Below are positions 3,411 to 9,666 of a stretch of 64,000 nucleotides of DNA, piece after piece (the stretch's first letter is position 1; every line of letters starts with the position of its first letter). The notes beneath the pieces were generated by a model. It did no database searches. It was not told the DNA's origin and saw only the letters and a list, made by a program, of their open reading frames with translations. The DNA is from a phage, in sequence record PZ496580.1. One strand, 5' to 3'. Both the position numbers and the translations under genes were made by a program.

Positions 3411-3965
3411 CTAAAAATTTTTAACACCATATTCACCAAAATAAAGATCAACCGCTTTGTCATAAGCTCTGGCCGCATCTTCTTCGTTGACATAATACCC
3501 AAGAGATATTAGTTTATCATTATTTCGTATTCTTGCAACCCATTTCTTCGTATGTTTATGCCAGCTAACCCCTTTATACTTGCTTGCTTTATTCTTGTAC
3601 TTTCCAACGTTACAAGCATTTTTCTTTGCGTCGGACTCTCTAAGATTGCGCGGTGCGTTGTTTAAAGGATTTCGGTCTATATGATCTATAATTTCTGGTT
3701 GTGTTCCATGCTCAAGAAACCATACAATACGATGTACATATGGCTTTAAAACCCTCCCATTATCCATAACAATTGCAATTTGGAGATGATCCTGACTTTT
3801 AAAAGTTTTTACTTTATCTCCTGCCTTATAAAACTTTCCTTCGTAATTCTTTCCTCCGGCTCGGCTATTCTTTAAATGATAAAGAATACCATCGTCGTCA
3901 TGTCTATATCTTTCTCGTATAATTCGTTGCGTTTCTTCATCCCACAATTTGGAACGTCTACTCAT
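3411..3965 (-). CDS. HNH homing endonuclease with AP2 DNA-binding domain
   Basis: HNH motif HIDRNPLNNAPRNL; C-terminal AP2-like YKGVSWHKHTKKWVARI...LGYY...EEDAARAYDKA; ATG at 3965; sits between genes 47 and 55 where T4 carries a-gt. Confidence 0.75.
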   Translation of the reverse strand: MSRRSKLWDEETQRIIRERYRHDDDGILYHLKNSRAGGKNYEGKFYKAGDKVKTFKSQDHLQIAIVMDNGRVLKPYVHRIVWFLEHGTQPEIIDHIDRNPLNNAPRNLRESDAKKNACNVGKYKNKASKYKGVSWHKHTKKWVARIRNNDKLISLGYYVNEEDAARAYDKAVDLYFGEYGVKNF

Positions 3966-4344: not shown

Positions 4345-4578
4345 TTATTTTCCTTCTGGGATATAGTCGATGATTAAAGAAAATTCATCTTCTGATACAT
4401 TATAGCTATGTGAGATTGTACCCGTAAAGACCTCAAGGTCCGGTGATTTGATATTGCACGGATCGATAATCACCGGAACGCCGCAATCTCTCAAAAATAA
4501 TTTGGCGAAATACGGCACAAGGTCAGTTTCAAACTCTGCTTCTTCCAGCAAACGGGAAATGTTAATTTTCAATCTCAT
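4345..4578 (-). CDS. hypothetical protein (77 aa)
   Basis: ORF overlapping gene 55 3' end by 17 nt. Confidence 0.4.
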
Positions 4579-5095
4579 AAAATTGGTCCAGGCTAGGCAA
4601 TTCCTCGGTCAATACATCTTCAACCTTTGGCGCTTTCGGTTTATTGACCGATTCCTCGTAGTTGTTGATTTTATCGTAAATGTCCTGTATGAATGCCTCA
4701 TCCGCAATCTGGCACATATCAGCGTCGCGTTCGTCATATACATGATGCACAAAATATTTGTATTTTGCGGCGGTTGCTGTTCTTTCTTTTTTAATGCGCT
4801 GTACAAAGGCATTAAAGCACGCTTGCGTAATGTAAGCATGAGGATTTTTATACTTTGTCTCGTCAAAATTAATCAAACCCTTGACCGCCGCTTCGATTCC
4901 ATCGTCGATCATTTCTTCGCGCCACGTTTGACTATAGCCAGAAAAGTTAAAACGCCGTGATAGATTTTTAGAGATTTGCATAATTGCTAGGCCGATTTGG
5001 TCGCTCATTGGCACTTGTCGACCTTCGGCTGCAATTCGTTGTTTCCAACGGCAAATTTCTTCGTAAAGCTCTTTATTGTTTACATAATCAGACAC
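4562..5095 (-). CDS. 55: late-transcription sigma factor gp55
   Basis: YVNNKEL...IGLAIM...[10 protein letters not shown]...[23 protein letters not shown]...FIQDIYDK nearly collinear with T4 gp55; GTG start at 5095 with GAGGG Shine-Dalgarno. Confidence 0.9.
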
Positions 5096-5135
5096 TTCGC
5101 ACCCTCGCTATTATTTAGGAAATAACCCTTTCGGG

Positions 5136-6605
5136 CTATTCCCCATTACCATTATACTTTCTTTGCTTAGTTATCCACACTCTAACCATCTCTACAGATT
5201 CGCCGTCAGACGGATCAAGAGTTTTTCCTTTTTTCTTCATGCGGTACTTAAATCCGTTAAATCTTGCATTCTCTTGCTCGTTAAAGTCGAACATCTTTTT
5301 AAATGATTTTCGCCCTTTACGCTCACCGCATTCTAGAGGAATCATTCGGTCTGTTATTACATTGGCATTAGGTAGAAACGTTTTTAGATAATCTACCAAC
5401 GCCCAATCAGGAACATATAGATTAACATTCTCCTTGCTCTCGTTGTCTCTCAGGTTACAACGCAAACATAATTGAAATGCTGGTTCCAGATAATCAGACA
5501 CATGACGCGCTTTCAAAAACTCGTTTGTTGGGAGATCGCAACTATTAGCAAGACCTTTTAAAATATCAATCTCCCATCGTTGAGGGTTAAAGCTGAACAT
5601 CACAGCAACATTTTTATGATGAATGTAAGAGTTAAGACCATAAGATCCGTAAGGTATCCGCTCACCAATACCATTTGTGCACGCTTCTCGGTCCCGATTC
5701 ACGGTATAAATGAAGTCATCACCACATTCATTTTTAACCATATCAACAAGACGTTCAAAGGTATTGTTTGTTTCTGACTGGTGACGCGACCATCGTTCAG
5801 AGTCCGTCATAAGGATGATATTAACTCTATCTGTATTTTTATACTCTTTGAAATATAGTCTGGATTCTAGCGCACTCGGAACAAAATCACAATTTGCATA
5901 GTATCGTAGATACTTCCCACTATATGTATCAAAGAGATTTGCACATGCTATCGTAACCTTTTTAAAGTCTCCCCACGTACCGTGTTTGTTATCGTTCAAG
6001 AAAACAATTTTCGACCCATTCTTCCGGTGGCCTTCGTTATGTTTTACCATAACGTTGATTTTCTTCTCTAATAACGCCTCATAAAGCCCTCTAAGAGAAG
6101 AATCGATCATATCAGTACCATCCTTTGCACTTTCTATCTTTTCTTTGATAGCGGCCTTCTCAGAGTCTTTTAGAACTAAGTTCTGTAGGCATTCCGATTC
6201 GTCGGCGATTGGTTCGCAATGCTTCGTGATAAGTTCAAGATTAGACTTAAACGGATACTCATTAAATTCAACCAGTTGAGGAACTTCATCAATGTAAAGA
6301 GCATAATCACCAAACATTTTTGAACGTTCCATATTAGATAACGCTGTATGTGTAATGAATATCACATCAGCACCATCTTTAACTGATTGCATTATCGACG
6401 CTTGCACTGTCTTAAGGCTTCTTAGTCTTGTGCTATCAATCAAGACAGCACGACCGCCCATTCTTTTAAACTTATTGTAAGATTGTTCACTTAAAACACG
6501 AGATGGCGAAGCAATAACCGCTTTTTCTTTTGTCTCTAGGACGTGGGAAAGTATAGCATCAGTTTTCCCCGCCGCTGGCAATGCGATTAATGTTTCAATC
6601 TTCAT
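5136..6605 (-). CDS. P-loop NTPase, helicase-like N-terminal domain (489 aa), function unknown
   Basis: Walker A LPAAGKT, helicase motif Ia-like SPSRVLSEQ, Walker B LYIDEV; C-terminal Cys cluster CLRCN; ATG at 6605 overlaps stop of upstream ORF (TAATG). Confidence 0.6.
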   Translation of the reverse strand: MKIETLIALPAAGKTDAILSHVLETKEKAVIASPSRVLSEQSYNKFKRMGGRAVLIDSTRLRSLKTVQASIMQSVKDGADVIFITHTALSNMERSKMFGDYALYIDEVPQLVEFNEYPFKSNLELITKHCEPIADESECLQNLVLKDSEKAAIKEKIESAKDGTDMIDSSLRGLYEALLEKKINVMVKHNEGHRKNGSKIVFLNDNKHGTWGDFKKVTIACANLFDTYSGKYLRYYANCDFVPSALESRLYFKEYKNTDRVNIILMTDSERWSRHQSETNNTFERLVDMVKNECGDDFIYTVNRDREACTNGIGERIPYGSYGLNSYIHHKNVAVMFSFNPQRWEIDILKGLANSCDLPTNEFLKARHVSDYLEPAFQLCLRCNLRDNESKENVNLYVPDWALVDYLKTFLPNANVITDRMIPLECGERKGRKSFKKMFDFNEQENARFNGFKYRMKKKGKTLDPSDGESVEMVRVWITKQRKYNGNGE

Positions 6606-6910
6606 TAGAAACCCTTACGTCGTGCTTTCTGACATTTCTTGATCATTTTATCAGAAATTTCGCGCTTCGGTGCAATCTCTTTCACACCGAAAGCACTAAT
6701 GCCAAATTCAGAGAGAATATATTCAACCAACAATTCACGCACACGCGCTTTACCGATATTCACGCCGTTATTTTTCAGATATGTCTGGCCTTCGACTTGC
6801 ATCAGATCTAAATCCGCGTCGGTAATATTGATTTCTTCCATGCGCCCAAATCGAGAATAAACCATGTGTGCGATTGCATTGTGTACTAACATAATATATT
6901 CCTCACTCAA
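6605..6910 (-). CDS. hypothetical protein (101 aa)
   Basis: ORF translationally coupled to the downstream NTPase gene. Confidence 0.45.
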   Translation of the reverse strand: MSEEYIMLVHNAIAHMVYSRFGRMEEINITDADLDLMQVEGQTYLKNNGVNIGKARVRELLVEYILSEFGISAFGVKEIAPKREISDKMIKKCQKARRKGF

Positions 6911-6913
6911 GAA

Positions 6914-7072
6914 TTACTTAATGATACTTACTTTACCAGATCCGTGACAATGAGCGCAACACCCATCACCACGCAATCCTGTTCCGTTACAGTGTTTACA
7001 CGTCTTCAACGGTAAAGCCATTATAGCAAATAAAGCAATAATGAACACCGAAACTAAATTCTCAATAATCAT
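6914..7072 (-). CDS. small membrane-anchored protein with DnaJ-type zinc finger (52 aa)
   Basis: Hand-translated: MIIENLVSVFIIALFAIMALPLKTCKHCNGTGLRGDGCCAHCHGSGKVSIIK; hydrophobic N-terminus then two CxxCxGxG repeats; GAGGG 6 nt upstream of ATG; under 60 aa so absent from track. Confidence 0.4.
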   Translation of the reverse strand: MIIENLVSVFIIALFAIMALPLKTCKHCNGTGLRGDGCCAHCHGSGKVSIIK

Positions 7073-7331
7073 AAATCGCCCTCAGTTCTTTATAGCCTCC
7101 AATGTGCTCGTTGTCAATGAATATCTGGGGGTATACAAATCGGAGGCTCTTTGAGTTCAGCCTCCCCGCCAGTTCTTCAATCATATCACGGTCGGGAATA
7201 ATGTCAACCCCAACCTGCTTGAATACTGGTTTAAGTGTATACGGAATACCCAGATCATCCAGTAGCTTCATTGCACTAATACAACCATAACAATGATAAG
7301 CCTCTTTCGGTATACCGTATATCTCGATCAT
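7062..7331 (-). CDS. nrdH: glutaredoxin-like redoxin (NrdH/Grx family)
   Basis: CYGC active-site motif near N-terminus, about 89 aa, next to anaerobic RNR genes; ATG at 7331. Confidence 0.65.
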   Translation of the reverse strand: MIEIYGIPKEAYHCYGCISAMKLLDDLGIPYTLKPVFKQVGVDIIPDRDMIEELAGRLNSKSLRFVYPQIFIDNEHIGGYKELRAIYDY

Positions 7332-7834
7332 TTCTCAGCCTTTAATCTTTCTAGTTCTTCTTCCAGTTCCTTAATGCGCTTCTCGCGTTCAATATCACGT
7401 TGGATCTTAGTGGCGAATACTCGTTTAAACTGACTATAGTCATCAATTTTAAATACTTCCTCTTCACCATATCGACGTACAGAAACTTCGTAGTTGTTGA
7501 AAAATTGTTCCAACATTGCATCAGTGGTCAGTTCTGCCGATACCACTTTAAAATGACGTTCTTCTGATTGCAAAAACCAGTTGTGCGCGTATTCCCGTAC
7601 ATCATCAACATTGCGGCAGGTGTATACCGTGCCATCAATTTCAATCGCAGAAACATAATCATCATCCGATGCATGGTGATCAAATGCAATAACTTTAAAT
7701 GGACGGTCGCCGATAAACTCTGCTATTGCATCATTTGCAACGCTAAAGTTTGCAAAATCTTTTCTCGTTTTCTTATCTTTCCACTGATAGGTCACGCCAG
7801 CAACAAACATATTACCATCCTCGCTCTTTACCAA
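7328..7834 (-). CDS. paralog-family protein (family A; beta-rich domain plus C-terminal coiled coil)
   Basis: Shares GxTYxWKD...GxRPFKV...IEIDG...WF...F unit with ORFs at 7812, 8649, 9118, 14038; charged coiled-coil tail. Confidence 0.55.
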   Translation of the reverse strand: MVKSEDGNMFVAGVTYQWKDKKTRKDFANFSVANDAIAEFIGDRPFKVIAFDHHASDDDYVSAIEIDGTVYTCRNVDDVREYAHNWFLQSEERHFKVVSAELTTDAMLEQFFNNYEVSVRRYGEEEVFKIDDYSQFKRVFATKIQRDIEREKRIKELEEELERLKAEK

Positions 7835-8636
7835 TCAAAAATTCAACTTCACGACGTTTAATGTCTTCTTGAAGGTCTTTAATCTTCTGTCGATCTTGCA
7901 TGATTTCGTCCATCTTGTCAAGTGCTGCAATGAAATCATCGAAACGTTCAAAGGTTTTACCTTCATTTGCTTCGCTAAATTTAACCATAGTCAGACCGTA
8001 ACGACTACTAAACAGACGTTTCAACTGTCCAACGATCTTAGAATCAGTGGTTATAACTTCCAATTCTTCTACTTCTTGAAAGAATTTTCTATCAGAATCA
8101 ATAAACCAGCTAGTTCCTTTATGGTCTCTATCTCCGGTTGCGCTCATTAGAGTATGGTCTTTACCATCAATTTCAATTACATCAATTTGCCCACATGGAC
8201 TAACATTTTTAACAGTAAAAGGTCTATAATTTATTGCTCGTGCAATAACATAATTAAGGTTAGATACGTTTTCAGCATAATGGCAGAAGTCGGTCATAGC
8301 CTTCGCATCTTTCCAAGTATAAGTTTTACCAACTTCCCATTTCTGGGGAACTTCTTCAACTTCACGAAAGAATTTTCTATCGAATGGACTAAAGAAATAT
8401 GTTGCAGTCCAAATGTCTTTTCCTGTAGCAGTTTTCGCCGTATGATAAACACCGTCTAGCTCTATTGCATTAATCCAACCGTTACCCTCGATCTCGATGA
8501 TGGTAAATGGCTTGTCACCAATAGCTGCACTAATATCGCTGTTAAGTGGAGAAAGAACACCTTCTCCGTTAGTAATAAACTCAGTTTTAGCGTTTTCATC
8601 TTTCCAAGTGTAAGTTTTACCAATTTCCCATTTCAT
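7812..8636 (-). CDS. paralog-family protein, two tandem family-A domains plus coiled-coil tail
   Basis: Internal duplication KWEIGKTYTWKDENAKTEF... and KWEVGKTYTWKDAKAMTDF..., each ending FDRKFF.EVEE. Confidence 0.6.
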   Translation of the reverse strand: MKWEIGKTYTWKDENAKTEFITNGEGVLSPLNSDISAAIGDKPFTIIEIEGNGWINAIELDGVYHTAKTATGKDIWTATYFFSPFDRKFFREVEEVPQKWEVGKTYTWKDAKAMTDFCHYAENVSNLNYVIARAINYRPFTVKNVSPCGQIDVIEIDGKDHTLMSATGDRDHKGTSWFIDSDRKFFQEVEELEVITTDSKIVGQLKRLFSSRYGLTMVKFSEANEGKTFERFDDFIAALDKMDEIMQDRQKIKDLQEDIKRREVEFLIGKERGW

Positions 8637-8648
8637 AATATATTCCCC

Positions 8649-9128
8649 TTAACCGATTTTATCAAGTTCGTTTAATGCTTTCTCTGCTTCCTGTATAGCT
8701 TGCACCCTTTCCGGCATTTTGTCAAGAAAATCTTTCAACTCTTCAAAACTGGAGATATGACGCAAGGCATTAGCACCGATAGCCGCATGTGATTTGCATT
8801 CAAAGCGAATTTTATAATTATCCATCGCCAACTTGAGAAGATCAATTAGTTTAGATTCTTCTGGAATAATAATTTCTTCAAATCTGCTACGGTCGTGATC
8901 CAGAAACCAACAAGATAGACCTACATCGGTTGAACTCATATAAGTTCCATCATGAAGATATACAGATCGCACGTATCCTTTTTTCGCATCAACCGACGCA
9001 ACTTTAAACGGTAATCTCAGATATTTCAAATAATCAACATCATACCATTTAAAAAATTGGTTTGCATCTTTTACATCTTTCCACGCATAGGTCTTACCAG
9101 CTTCCCATTTCATAATATCATCTCTCAT
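8649..9128 (-). CDS. paralog-family protein (family A)
   Basis: N-terminus MKWEAGKTYAWKDVKD...; WFLDHDRSRFEE; C-terminal helical tail. Confidence 0.55.
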   Translation of the reverse strand: MRDDIMKWEAGKTYAWKDVKDANQFFKWYDVDYLKYLRLPFKVASVDAKKGYVRSVYLHDGTYMSSTDVGLSCWFLDHDRSRFEEIIIPEESKLIDLLKLAMDNYKIRFECKSHAAIGANALRHISSFEELKDFLDKMPERVQAIQEAEKALNELDKIG

Positions 9129-9666
9129 TTTTGATACGTGATTCTAATTGGATCATACGGTCGCGCGTTTGCTTGTATTCGCGGATAGCACCGATACGGC
9201 TAGGCATACCATTTAGAACGCTCTTAATACCTTCTAGGGTAGTAATTTTAGCAATGCTATTATGTAACCCCATCTTATCGATTAACTGAATATCGTAGGC
9301 TTCCATAAGCAGACCCAGACGTTCTAAGGTTAAATCTTGTTCTTTATCTTCTTCCTTTTCTTCCGGTTCTGGGATTTCTTTGTTAATAGTAGCTTCGGTA
9401 AAGAAACGACGCTCACCTGCCCAAAACCACACACCGGAAAAGCCAATAGGGGATTCTTTTAACGTCATAGAGTCGTAACCACTGCCGATAATAGTAATTT
9501 CTCTAACATCACCATCATCGTCAATGTCTTCTACCCTAAACGGGCGACCAGCCAACAAGTCCACAATACATCTGTTAATAGACGACGAAAATTTAGTCAG
9601 TTCGGCTTTCGACGCTTCGCATTCAATCTTGTAAGTTTTACCAACTTCCCATTCCATAATAATCAC
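9118..9666 (-). CDS. paralog-family protein (family A)
   Basis: MEWEVGKTYK...GRPFRVEDI...WFWAGERRFFTE; acidic linker and coiled-coil tail. Confidence 0.55.
   Translation of the reverse strand: MIIMEWEVGKTYKIECEASKAELTKFSSSINRCIVDLLAGRPFRVEDIDDDGDVREITIIGSGYDSMTLKESPIGFSGVWFWAGERRFFTEATINKEIPEPEEKEEDKEQDLTLERLGLLMEAYDIQLIDKMGLHNSIAKITTLEGIKSVLNGMPSRIGAIREYKQTRDRMIQLESRIKNER

Follow-up and report, generated by a model that had tools for sequence, protein, structure and literature searches.

A superfamily 2 helicase-like ATPase gene overlapping the gene 55.2 homologue of an RB49-type, T4-related phage

In T4, the interval between gene 55 and nrdH holds only the small genes 55.1 to 55.6. The corresponding interval of the phage DNA considered here (64,000 nt of sequence record PZ496580.1, the whole of which is referred to below as the window; the segment of interest is 5,136-7,072) contains, directly upstream of gene 55, a gene for a 489-residue protein whose conserved motifs identify it as a superfamily 2 (SF2) helicase-like P-loop NTPase with an intact ATP site. 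In predicted architecture this protein resembles the XPD/Rad3/DinG helicases without their Fe-S domain, and its start codon overlaps the stop codon of a homologue of T4 gene 55.2. We give a little better than an even chance to the reading that it is an active motor of this type, acting as an accessory helicase of early replication or recombination and paired with gp55.2.

By its sequence the window is a Krischvirus genome of the RB49/JSE/Phi1 type, T4-related: over positions 4500-7400 it shares 98-99% identity with 59 genomes of this genus, RB49, JSE, Phi1 and Brandy among them. The minus-strand genes follow one another, in the direction of transcription, as nrdH, a 52-codon open reading frame (ORF), the 55.2 homologue, the 489-codon ORF, a hairpin and gene 55 (Table 1). 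A preliminary description of this DNA, made from the sequence, had listed three ORFs directly upstream of gene 55, within 5136-7072, and had remarked that T4 has only small 55.x ORFs here; all of this stands, the ORFs being on the minus strand. (The three ORFs are also present in GenBank annotation, mostly as "hypothetical protein". In RB49 they are named RB49ORF046c, 55.2 and RB49ORF044c, respectively, and the record of phage W115 labels them "putative membrane protein", "hypothetical protein" and "putative helicase".)

The 489-residue protein as an SF2 ATPase

The assignment to SF2 is made because Walker A, Walker B and motif VI are conserved. Residues of each motif are invariant in an alignment of 30 phage homologues, whose identity with the window protein ranges from 32 to 74%, and the same motifs are invariant in 53 long bacterial forms of the protein described below (in the case of Walker A, its G and K). 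Homologues of the 489-residue protein reach E 1e-100 and better, so the match is beyond chance; the corresponding PHROGs family is phrog_2467. Compared with RB49, the gene has 12 synonymous codon differences and 1 non-synonymous difference, a pattern that marks it as being under purifying selection. The helicase-like P-loop NTPase of the preliminary description is accordingly borne out, as a member of SF2, and the motifs that had been quoted for it (LPAAGKT, SPSRVLSEQ at 6483-6509, and YIDEV) are all present. A C-terminal Cys cluster, which had been claimed as well, is not: the cysteines are not conserved, and a metal-binding site of this kind was rejected on the ground that C130 and C380 alone are invariant among the 30 homologues.

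Family models touch this protein lightly. Pfam DEAD (PF00270) scores 27.3 bits against a gathering score of 26, a marginal pass confined to the N-terminal third of the protein, and at E ≤ 1 it matches 15 of the 30 homologues; NCBIfam has no match for the helicase or for the 55.2 homologue. Read literally, the PF00270 match would make the protein a DEAD-box or DEAH-type RNA helicase, remodeling phage or host RNA in mRNA turnover, in translation or in R-loop-independent RNA structure. This we regard as highly improbable. PF00270 is a generic model of the SF2 N-terminal domain, and the DEAD-box structure matches of the protein span one RecA domain only (~140 residues). Walker A, starting at residue 9, leaves no room for a Q motif ahead of it, motif II reads D-E-V-P (DEVP or DETP across the 30 homologues) and not D-E-A-D or D-E-A-H, and the site of motif III reads T-I-A-C-A-N. 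Moreover, relatives of the protein are fused to a domain resembling DNA primase-polymerases.

Predicted fold

An AlphaFold2 model built on the alignment (pLDDT 87.9, pTM 0.76) was compared with known structures by two methods, Foldseek and a second structure comparison. The best matches by both are of the XPD/Rad3/DinG/CasDinG type; in Foldseek XPD and CasDinG rank first (E 1.5e-10 to 1e-8). In the second comparison, matches of this type align 324-372 residues, versus ~250 for other SF2 cores, i.e. 70-100 more. In XPD and DinG, helicase domain 1 is interrupted after motif II and before motif III by the Arch domain. At the same place the model of the 489-residue protein has an insertion of mixed helices and strands (residues 110-215, a region over which phage and bacterial sequences can be aligned), and the extra residues aligned with XPD and DinG fit an insertion at this position, a candidate equivalent of the Arch domain.

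The 4Fe-4S domain with its four cysteines is absent. Only ~45 residues lie between motif Ia and the strand preceding Walker B, which is too short a segment for it, and they include no conserved cysteine. Because the Fe-S domain is missing, and because the Pfam models DEAD_2 (PF06733) and Helicase_C_2 (PF13307) have no match at E ≤ 1 in any of the 30 members (nor at E ≤ 0.01 in 10 of the long-form relatives), the protein is called XPD/DinG-like in modeled architecture and not a member of the XPD/DinG family.

Relatives in bacterial chromosomes

The helicase family is large and mostly non-phage. A profile search of 1.8 billion representative proteins, with a cut-off of E ≤ 1e-3, retrieved 1,320 clusters, of which 765 also pass E ≤ 1e-10; they fall into two length classes of ~470-560 and ~730-890 residues. 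Long forms are encoded in bacterial chromosomes, for example in Bradyrhizobium and Belnapia, and the phage and bacterial helicase profiles align over 431 columns (hhalign, 100% probability, E 5e-68). The additional C-terminal ~300 residues of the long forms are modeled (pLDDT 89) with a fold like that of the AEP primase-polymerases, and they contain conserved acidic motifs, LDF[DE] and SGLD. By sequence, neither this extra domain nor the AEP-like profile matches anything in Pfam or the PDB, and a search with the long-form profile returned generic SF2 N-terminal matches only.

Genetic context was read at three loci. In one of them (L013, 4401-13408), genes for a tyrosine integrase and AlpA are followed by a short-form helicase gene, a separate gene for a 258-residue AEP-like protein (hhalign E 1e-65) and then DUF927 genes. 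In the two others (L014, 6168-10445; L015, 6023-10300), a tyrosine integrase gene and an HTH_17 gene are followed by the gene of a fused helicase-AEP-like protein. Integrative elements usually have their replication module in this slot, after an integrase gene and an AlpA or HTH_17 gene. To judge from these three loci, the genes of the bacterial relatives would seem to be the helicase-primase genes of mobile elements that integrate, and a role in replication is suggested because they sit in the replication slot, fused to or followed by the AEP-like domain. The window has the helicase homology of such a module and not the fused or adjacent AEP-like domain: no ORF in its 64 kb matches the AEP-like profile at E ≤ 10, and the 489-residue protein ends after a 60-residue tail.

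A stretch of the Bradyrhizobium sp. 172 chromosome (CP064701; L008, 8807-22319) encodes an 808-residue helicase-AEP fusion. Around it are small genes that lack annotation, and the stretch also has genes for an ATP-dependent DNA ligase, for a DUF6641 protein and for a protein with a faint ORC/CDC6-like match. DUF6641 recurs near the protein designated P0043, and this stretch may be a further conserved island.

Pairing with gene 55.2

The middle ORF, which the preliminary description had left unnamed, is by its sequence a homologue of the characterized T4 gp55.2. The two are 42% identical over 96 residues (E 7e-20), and Pfam DUF7570 (PF24454) matches with E 1.4e-28 (99.2 bits against a cut-off of 27). 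It had been listed as a 101-residue ORF starting from TTG (6605-6910); the ORF is real, and its start is most probably not this TTG, the ATG at 6892 being preceded by a GAGGA Shine-Dalgarno sequence and giving the 95-residue protein also annotated in RB49. T4 gp55.2 binds DNA and specifically prevents E. coli topoisomerase I from relaxing negative supercoils; it changes supercoiling in vivo and raises phage fitness (Mattenberger et al. 2015, PMC4396842). These properties are known from T4 gp55.2 only, to which the RB49-type protein is likened by sequence.

Translational coupling had been proposed for the entire three-gene set. For the helicase gene it is supported by the TAATG overlap of 55.2 stop and helicase start. 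At the upstream junction the 52-codon ORF and 55.2 are 21 nt apart and 55.2 has its own Shine-Dalgarno sequence. Among phages, 55.2 and the helicase gene are usually adjacent where they co-occur, with stop and start overlapping, and the overlapping pair is found in four genera (Krischvirus; Pseudotevenvirus, phage RB16; Bragavirus, phage Pm5461; Cinqassovirus, phage Ah1). In RB16 (L005, 2166-3928), the pair is followed by tail-fiber gene 34 and gene 55 is elsewhere; the pair has therefore moved as a unit in genome rearrangement. In Aeromonas phage 25, two genes lie between 55.2 and the helicase gene, whose start is overlapped by PHG25ORF050c (L004, 1929-2504), encoding a DprA-like recombination mediator (phrog_768, E 6e-66). 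A DprA-like gene in the place of 55.2 is a feature of Aeromonas phages of the 44RR/25 type; the window has none.

The helicase gene is the less widespread partner. Full-length homologues were found by tblastn in 244 phage records, compared with 1,093 records for 55.2. The carriers are Krischvirus, Pseudotevenvirus of the RB16 type, many T4-like phages of Aeromonas, and phages of Proteus, Serratia, Erwinia, Morganella and Cronobacter, with a Pseudoalteromonas phage as the one non-T4 carrier among the phage records; in T-even phages tblastn found no homologue.

An accessory distribution of this kind, a location among the many small accessory genes of a variable early region, and the presence of the defense helicases CasDinG, Hna and DdmD among the structural neighbors of the protein would suit an ATPase of counter-defense or inter-phage conflict, one that displaces or decoys host surveillance complexes, or excludes competing phages, and is not a replication factor. 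An anti-defense ATPase was indeed among the preliminary suggestions. Nothing else points to it, and we think it distinctly unlikely. PADLOC yields no meaningful match (the best, E 0.009, is to an unrelated model); at the integrative-element loci that were read, relatives pair with a primase-polymerase-like domain and not with nuclease or effector domains; and the coupled partners in phages, 55.2 and the DprA-like protein, are proteins of DNA metabolism.

Proposed function

An accessory role in replication or recombination, the other preliminary suggestion, is the best-supported reading: relatives occupy the replication slot with an AEP-like domain, and the gene can be coupled to one for a DprA-like protein. 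The protein would be an active SF2 motor of XPD/Rad3/DinG-like build, made by translational coupling with the 55.2 homologue. It would bind single-stranded DNA, translocate along it with ATP (probably 5'->3', as do XPD and DinG) and open duplex DNA or RNA-DNA hybrids. Unwinding of R-loops and RNA-DNA hybrids is a typical activity of this architecture, as work on E. coli DinG and CasDinG supports (PMC2770101, PMC10450177). The two coupled proteins most likely would share a substrate, namely underwound DNA prone to R-loop and D-loop formation at the start of phage replication, with gp55.2 keeping this DNA underwound and the helicase opening or clearing it. The role is proposed to be accessory because T4-like phages prime with gp41/gp61 and have Dda; having a gp41/gp61 primosome of their own, these phages would have kept the helicase half of the module alone, for use early in replication or recombination.

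Several considerations weigh against this proposal. RB49 encodes dda and gene 41 too, so no specific need for the 489-residue helicase is evident (the idea that it replaces Dda was rejected for the same reason). The link with 55.2 is not universal, in that T-even phages carry 55.2 without the helicase and that the ORF preceding the helicase gene of Serratia phage Muldoon is unrelated to 55.2. Tight packing and gene overlaps are the rule in the early region, which makes adjacency weak evidence of a functional link. Polarity and substrate are carried over from XPD and DinG, to which the fold similarity is moderate (TM-score ~0.46-0.51, 8-15% identity); to the DEAD_2 and Helicase_C_2 negatives may be added the PDB, in which neither the protein nor its profile found a significant sequence match. 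The Fe-S domain is called essential for the helicase activity of DinG and XPD, and S. aureus DinG acts as a nuclease and not as a helicase (PMC3270479). For all members of the family, the proposal draws on sequence, models and gene context.

An alternative is a double-stranded DNA translocase or protein-displacing motor that does not unwind (of the Swi/Snf type, or resembling the IS-excision enhancer, IEE), stripping RNA polymerase or nucleoid proteins from DNA or holding DNA ends for a partner enzyme. The precedent of IEE also counts against an unwinding helicase: its helicase-like domain is an ATPase that does not unwind and that stabilizes DNA for its AEP partner (PMC9943667). The lack of the XPD Fe-S wedge domain, and a weak match to Pfam AAA_34 in 8 of the 30 members, are in keeping with such a motor. 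We nevertheless rate it as rather unlikely, since matches of the XPD/DinG type score higher and are longer by the margin given above, and since CasDinG, from type IV CRISPR systems, has only a vestigial Fe-S domain and yet unwinds DNA and RNA/DNA hybrids 5'-3' (PMC10450177).

The accessory helicase proposed here can be extended into a broader conjecture, which is doubtful and is offered as speculation. There may exist a large clade of monomeric XPD-like helicases, devoid of an Fe-S domain, that serve integrative elements as replicative helicase with an AEP partner; T4-like phages would have captured the helicase half and joined it to gp55.2 for origin opening or R-loop processing that is independent of the classical T4 pathways. 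If so, these elements would have a primosome built on an SF2 helicase in place of a hexameric SF3, SF4 or SF6 helicase, and in the phages the helicase would load onto DNA, of phage or host, that gp55.2 holds underwound.

The 52-residue micro-protein

The third ORF of the segment encodes a peptide of 52 residues with, as first described, a hydrophobic N-terminus (Kyte-Doolittle 2.4 for residues 1-19) and two DnaJ-type CxxCxGxG motifs, CKHCNGTG and CAHCHGSG, that are ~14 residues apart. The ORF has a good ribosome-binding site. Lysine and arginine residues follow the hydrophobic segment, and these flanking charges suggest, by the positive-inside rule, a single-pass N-out/C-in peptide with a cytoplasmic C-terminus. 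In DnaJ a pair of CxxCxGxG motifs binds one zinc ion, and the peptide has enough of them for one predicted zinc site of that type.

The peptide represents a genuine family of micro-proteins, and its gene is an accessory one in its own right, not linked to the helicase outside Krischvirus. The peptide matches phrog_3931 (E 1e-9) and is 94-100% conserved across the 59 Krischvirus records; a homology search found three close relatives only, including a 55-residue variant that is 82% identical, and an annotated 58-residue protein of Felixounavirus EC106 has the same layout. The codon differences in the ORF, 1 synonymous and 2 non-synonymous, are too small a number for selection to be assessed. The gene is missing beside the helicase gene in RB16, in two Aeromonas phages (25 and Ah1) and in Proteus phage Pm5461, and the picture of three genes forming one conserved module must be given up. 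The ORF had also been called missing from the ORF track. A few records do omit it; in general it is not unannotated, being RB49ORF046c in RB49 and present in the annotation of most relatives.

Neighboring genes and expression signals

The hairpin between the helicase gene and gene 55 is a notable feature of the junction (Table 1): none of 200 shuffled sequences folds as well. Lacking a U-tract, it is not, by its sequence, an intrinsic terminator of the canonical kind; partial termination is conceivable, as is a role in stabilizing or processing the RNA. Terminators are annotated at the equivalent junction in the records of Proteus phage Pm5461 and Serratia phage Muldoon. No TATAAATA late promoter was found near these genes, and the motif is not enriched in the window. 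Scans of the window for sigma-70 promoters and terminators gave no excess over shuffled controls, and no minus-strand terminator was called.

Table 1. Coordinates of the 489-codon gene, its motifs and its neighbors in the window
Feature	Position	Strand	Basis or remark
489-residue SF2 helicase-like ATPase (RB49ORF044c; phrog_2467), XPD/DinG-like predicted architecture	5136..6605	-	
Walker A / motif I, LPAAGKT, residues 9-15; G13, K14, T15 invariant	6561..6581	-	30 phage homologues aligned
Walker B / motif II, YIDEV, residues 104-108; D106, E107 invariant	6282..6296	-	30 phage homologues aligned; 53 bacterial long forms
Predicted accessory domain of ~105 residues, residues 110-215, between motifs II and III; C130, D165 invariant	5961..6278	-	model secondary structure, alignment
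Motif VI, QLCLRCNLR, residues 378-386, QxxxRxxxR type; Q378, R382, R386 invariant (arginine fingers)	5448..5474	-	alignments
Basic helical C-terminal tail, residues ~431-489; E445, W477 invariant in T4-like clade	5139..5315	-	alignment and structure model
T4 gene 55.2 homologue, 95 residues from ATG; Pfam DUF7570; TAA stop overlaps helicase ATG (TAATG)	6605..6892	-	
52-residue micro-protein (RB49ORF046c; phrog_3931); transmembrane helix 7007-7066, two CxxCxGxG motifs 6935-7000	6914..7072	-	
Perfect 13-bp hairpin, GAAA tetraloop, spanning helicase stop codon, 20 nt before gene 55	5116..5145	-	MFE -20.3 kcal/mol, z -3.15
Gene 55, late sigma factor; downstream neighbor	4562..5095	-	phrog_234, E 5e-63; RB49 annotation
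nrdH-like glutaredoxin; upstream neighbor	7062..7331	-	ends 11 nt inside the 52-codon ORF

Two other groups of genes in the vicinity deserve mention. Upstream of nrdH, four tandem genes on the minus strand (RB49ORF048c-051c, 7328-9666; products of 168, 274, 159 and 182 residues) contain five copies of a ~90-residue domain with invariant G, T-Y, P-F, G, F and F, roughly WExGKTYxWKD...RPF...IEIDG...WF...RxFFxEV. It has no Pfam match and constitutes a locally amplified family. Between gene 47 and a-gt.4, RB49ORF040c (3411-3965, minus strand) encodes HNH_3 and AP2 domains of the homing-endonuclease type and is probably a mobile insertion.

Significance

T4-type phages serve as the reference system for DNA replication and recombination, with three helicases known from textbooks: gp41, Dda and UvsW. 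The gene described here is a fourth helicase-like gene of these phages, under purifying selection and present in about 240 sequenced relatives; to our knowledge it has never been studied. The genes themselves were already in GenBank, and the helicase family was very probably predicted in a 2018 survey. What appears to be new is the XPD/DinG-like architecture without Fe-S domain, the reversed (helicase, then AEP) order of the fusions, the integrase-adjacent context, and the conserved coupling to a gene for a topoisomerase I inhibitor. The physical coupling of the helicase gene to 55.2, the sole characterized gene of the region, leads to a hypothesis about the handling of supercoiling and R-loops early in infection. 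In bacteria, many integrative elements may draw their replication helicase from this family, and the replication modules known from mobile elements would then be more varied than before. Phage-therapy cocktails make use of Krischviruses, and naming the genes of these phages has practical value for that reason.

Comparison with known systems

The 52-residue peptide resembles the Cys-rich domain of DnaJ at the level of its motifs only: it has two CxxCxGxG repeats, not four, and a weak local match to DnaJ models (E 4e-4) that in the case of PF00684 amounts to 14.6 bits against a cut-off of 32.7. It also has a weak local match to the 50-position model of B. subtilis anti-TRAP, RtpA (E 0.057; 13.5 bits against a cut-off of 65). 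The N-terminal transmembrane helix predicted for the peptide has no counterpart in DnaJ or in anti-TRAP. The 55.2 homologue, for its part, shares with T4 55.2 the Pfam family and the place between nrdH and gene 55, and differs in what follows it, the small gene 55.1 in T4 and here the helicase gene, with overlapping stop and start.

With XPD, Rad3 and DinG the 489-residue protein shares an SF2 core of two RecA domains that contains Walker A, Walker B and motif VI. Where they have the Arch domain, after motif II of the first RecA domain, it has a large predicted accessory domain. It differs from them in being smaller, in lacking an N-terminal extension, in its basic helical C-terminal tail and its DEVP motif II, and in the lack of a detectable sequence relationship. 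Nearest in this respect are the forms that lack a functional Fe-S domain, namely CasDinG and the DinG of Firmicutes. CasDinG is like the window protein in being without a functional Fe-S cluster; its Fe-S domain is vestigial, whereas that of the window protein is absent altogether.

IEE (from E. coli O157) is a mobile-element protein in which, as in the bacterial relatives, an AEP domain goes together with a helicase-like domain of SF2 (PMC9943667). Its domain order is the opposite, its helicase domain has been aligned with RadD and not with XPD or DinG, and no homology to the window protein was seen, none having been tested for.

A further comparison is with a new helicase family of viruses and plasmids predicted by Kazlauskas et al. 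as pVOG1685/9714 (PMC5862659). Domain order in the fusions differs, the helicase being N-terminal and the AEP-like domain C-terminal here and the reverse in their account, and none of the 30 members matches Pfam Herpes_ori_bp (UL9), to which they tied pVOG9714. Our set also includes P0126, which has a C-terminal helicase module; its N-terminal 370 residues could not be shown to be an AEP domain. The likenesses are that a remotely SF2-like domain occurs in T4-like phages and that in mobile elements it is joined to AEP primases, a pattern seen independently in the present analysis; P0126, moreover, has these same T4-like phage proteins as its only phage relatives. The family of the 489-residue protein is very probably the one that they predicted, and the Krischvirus protein can be thought of as the helicase half of such a helicase-primase, encoded in these phages alongside a 55.2 homologue.

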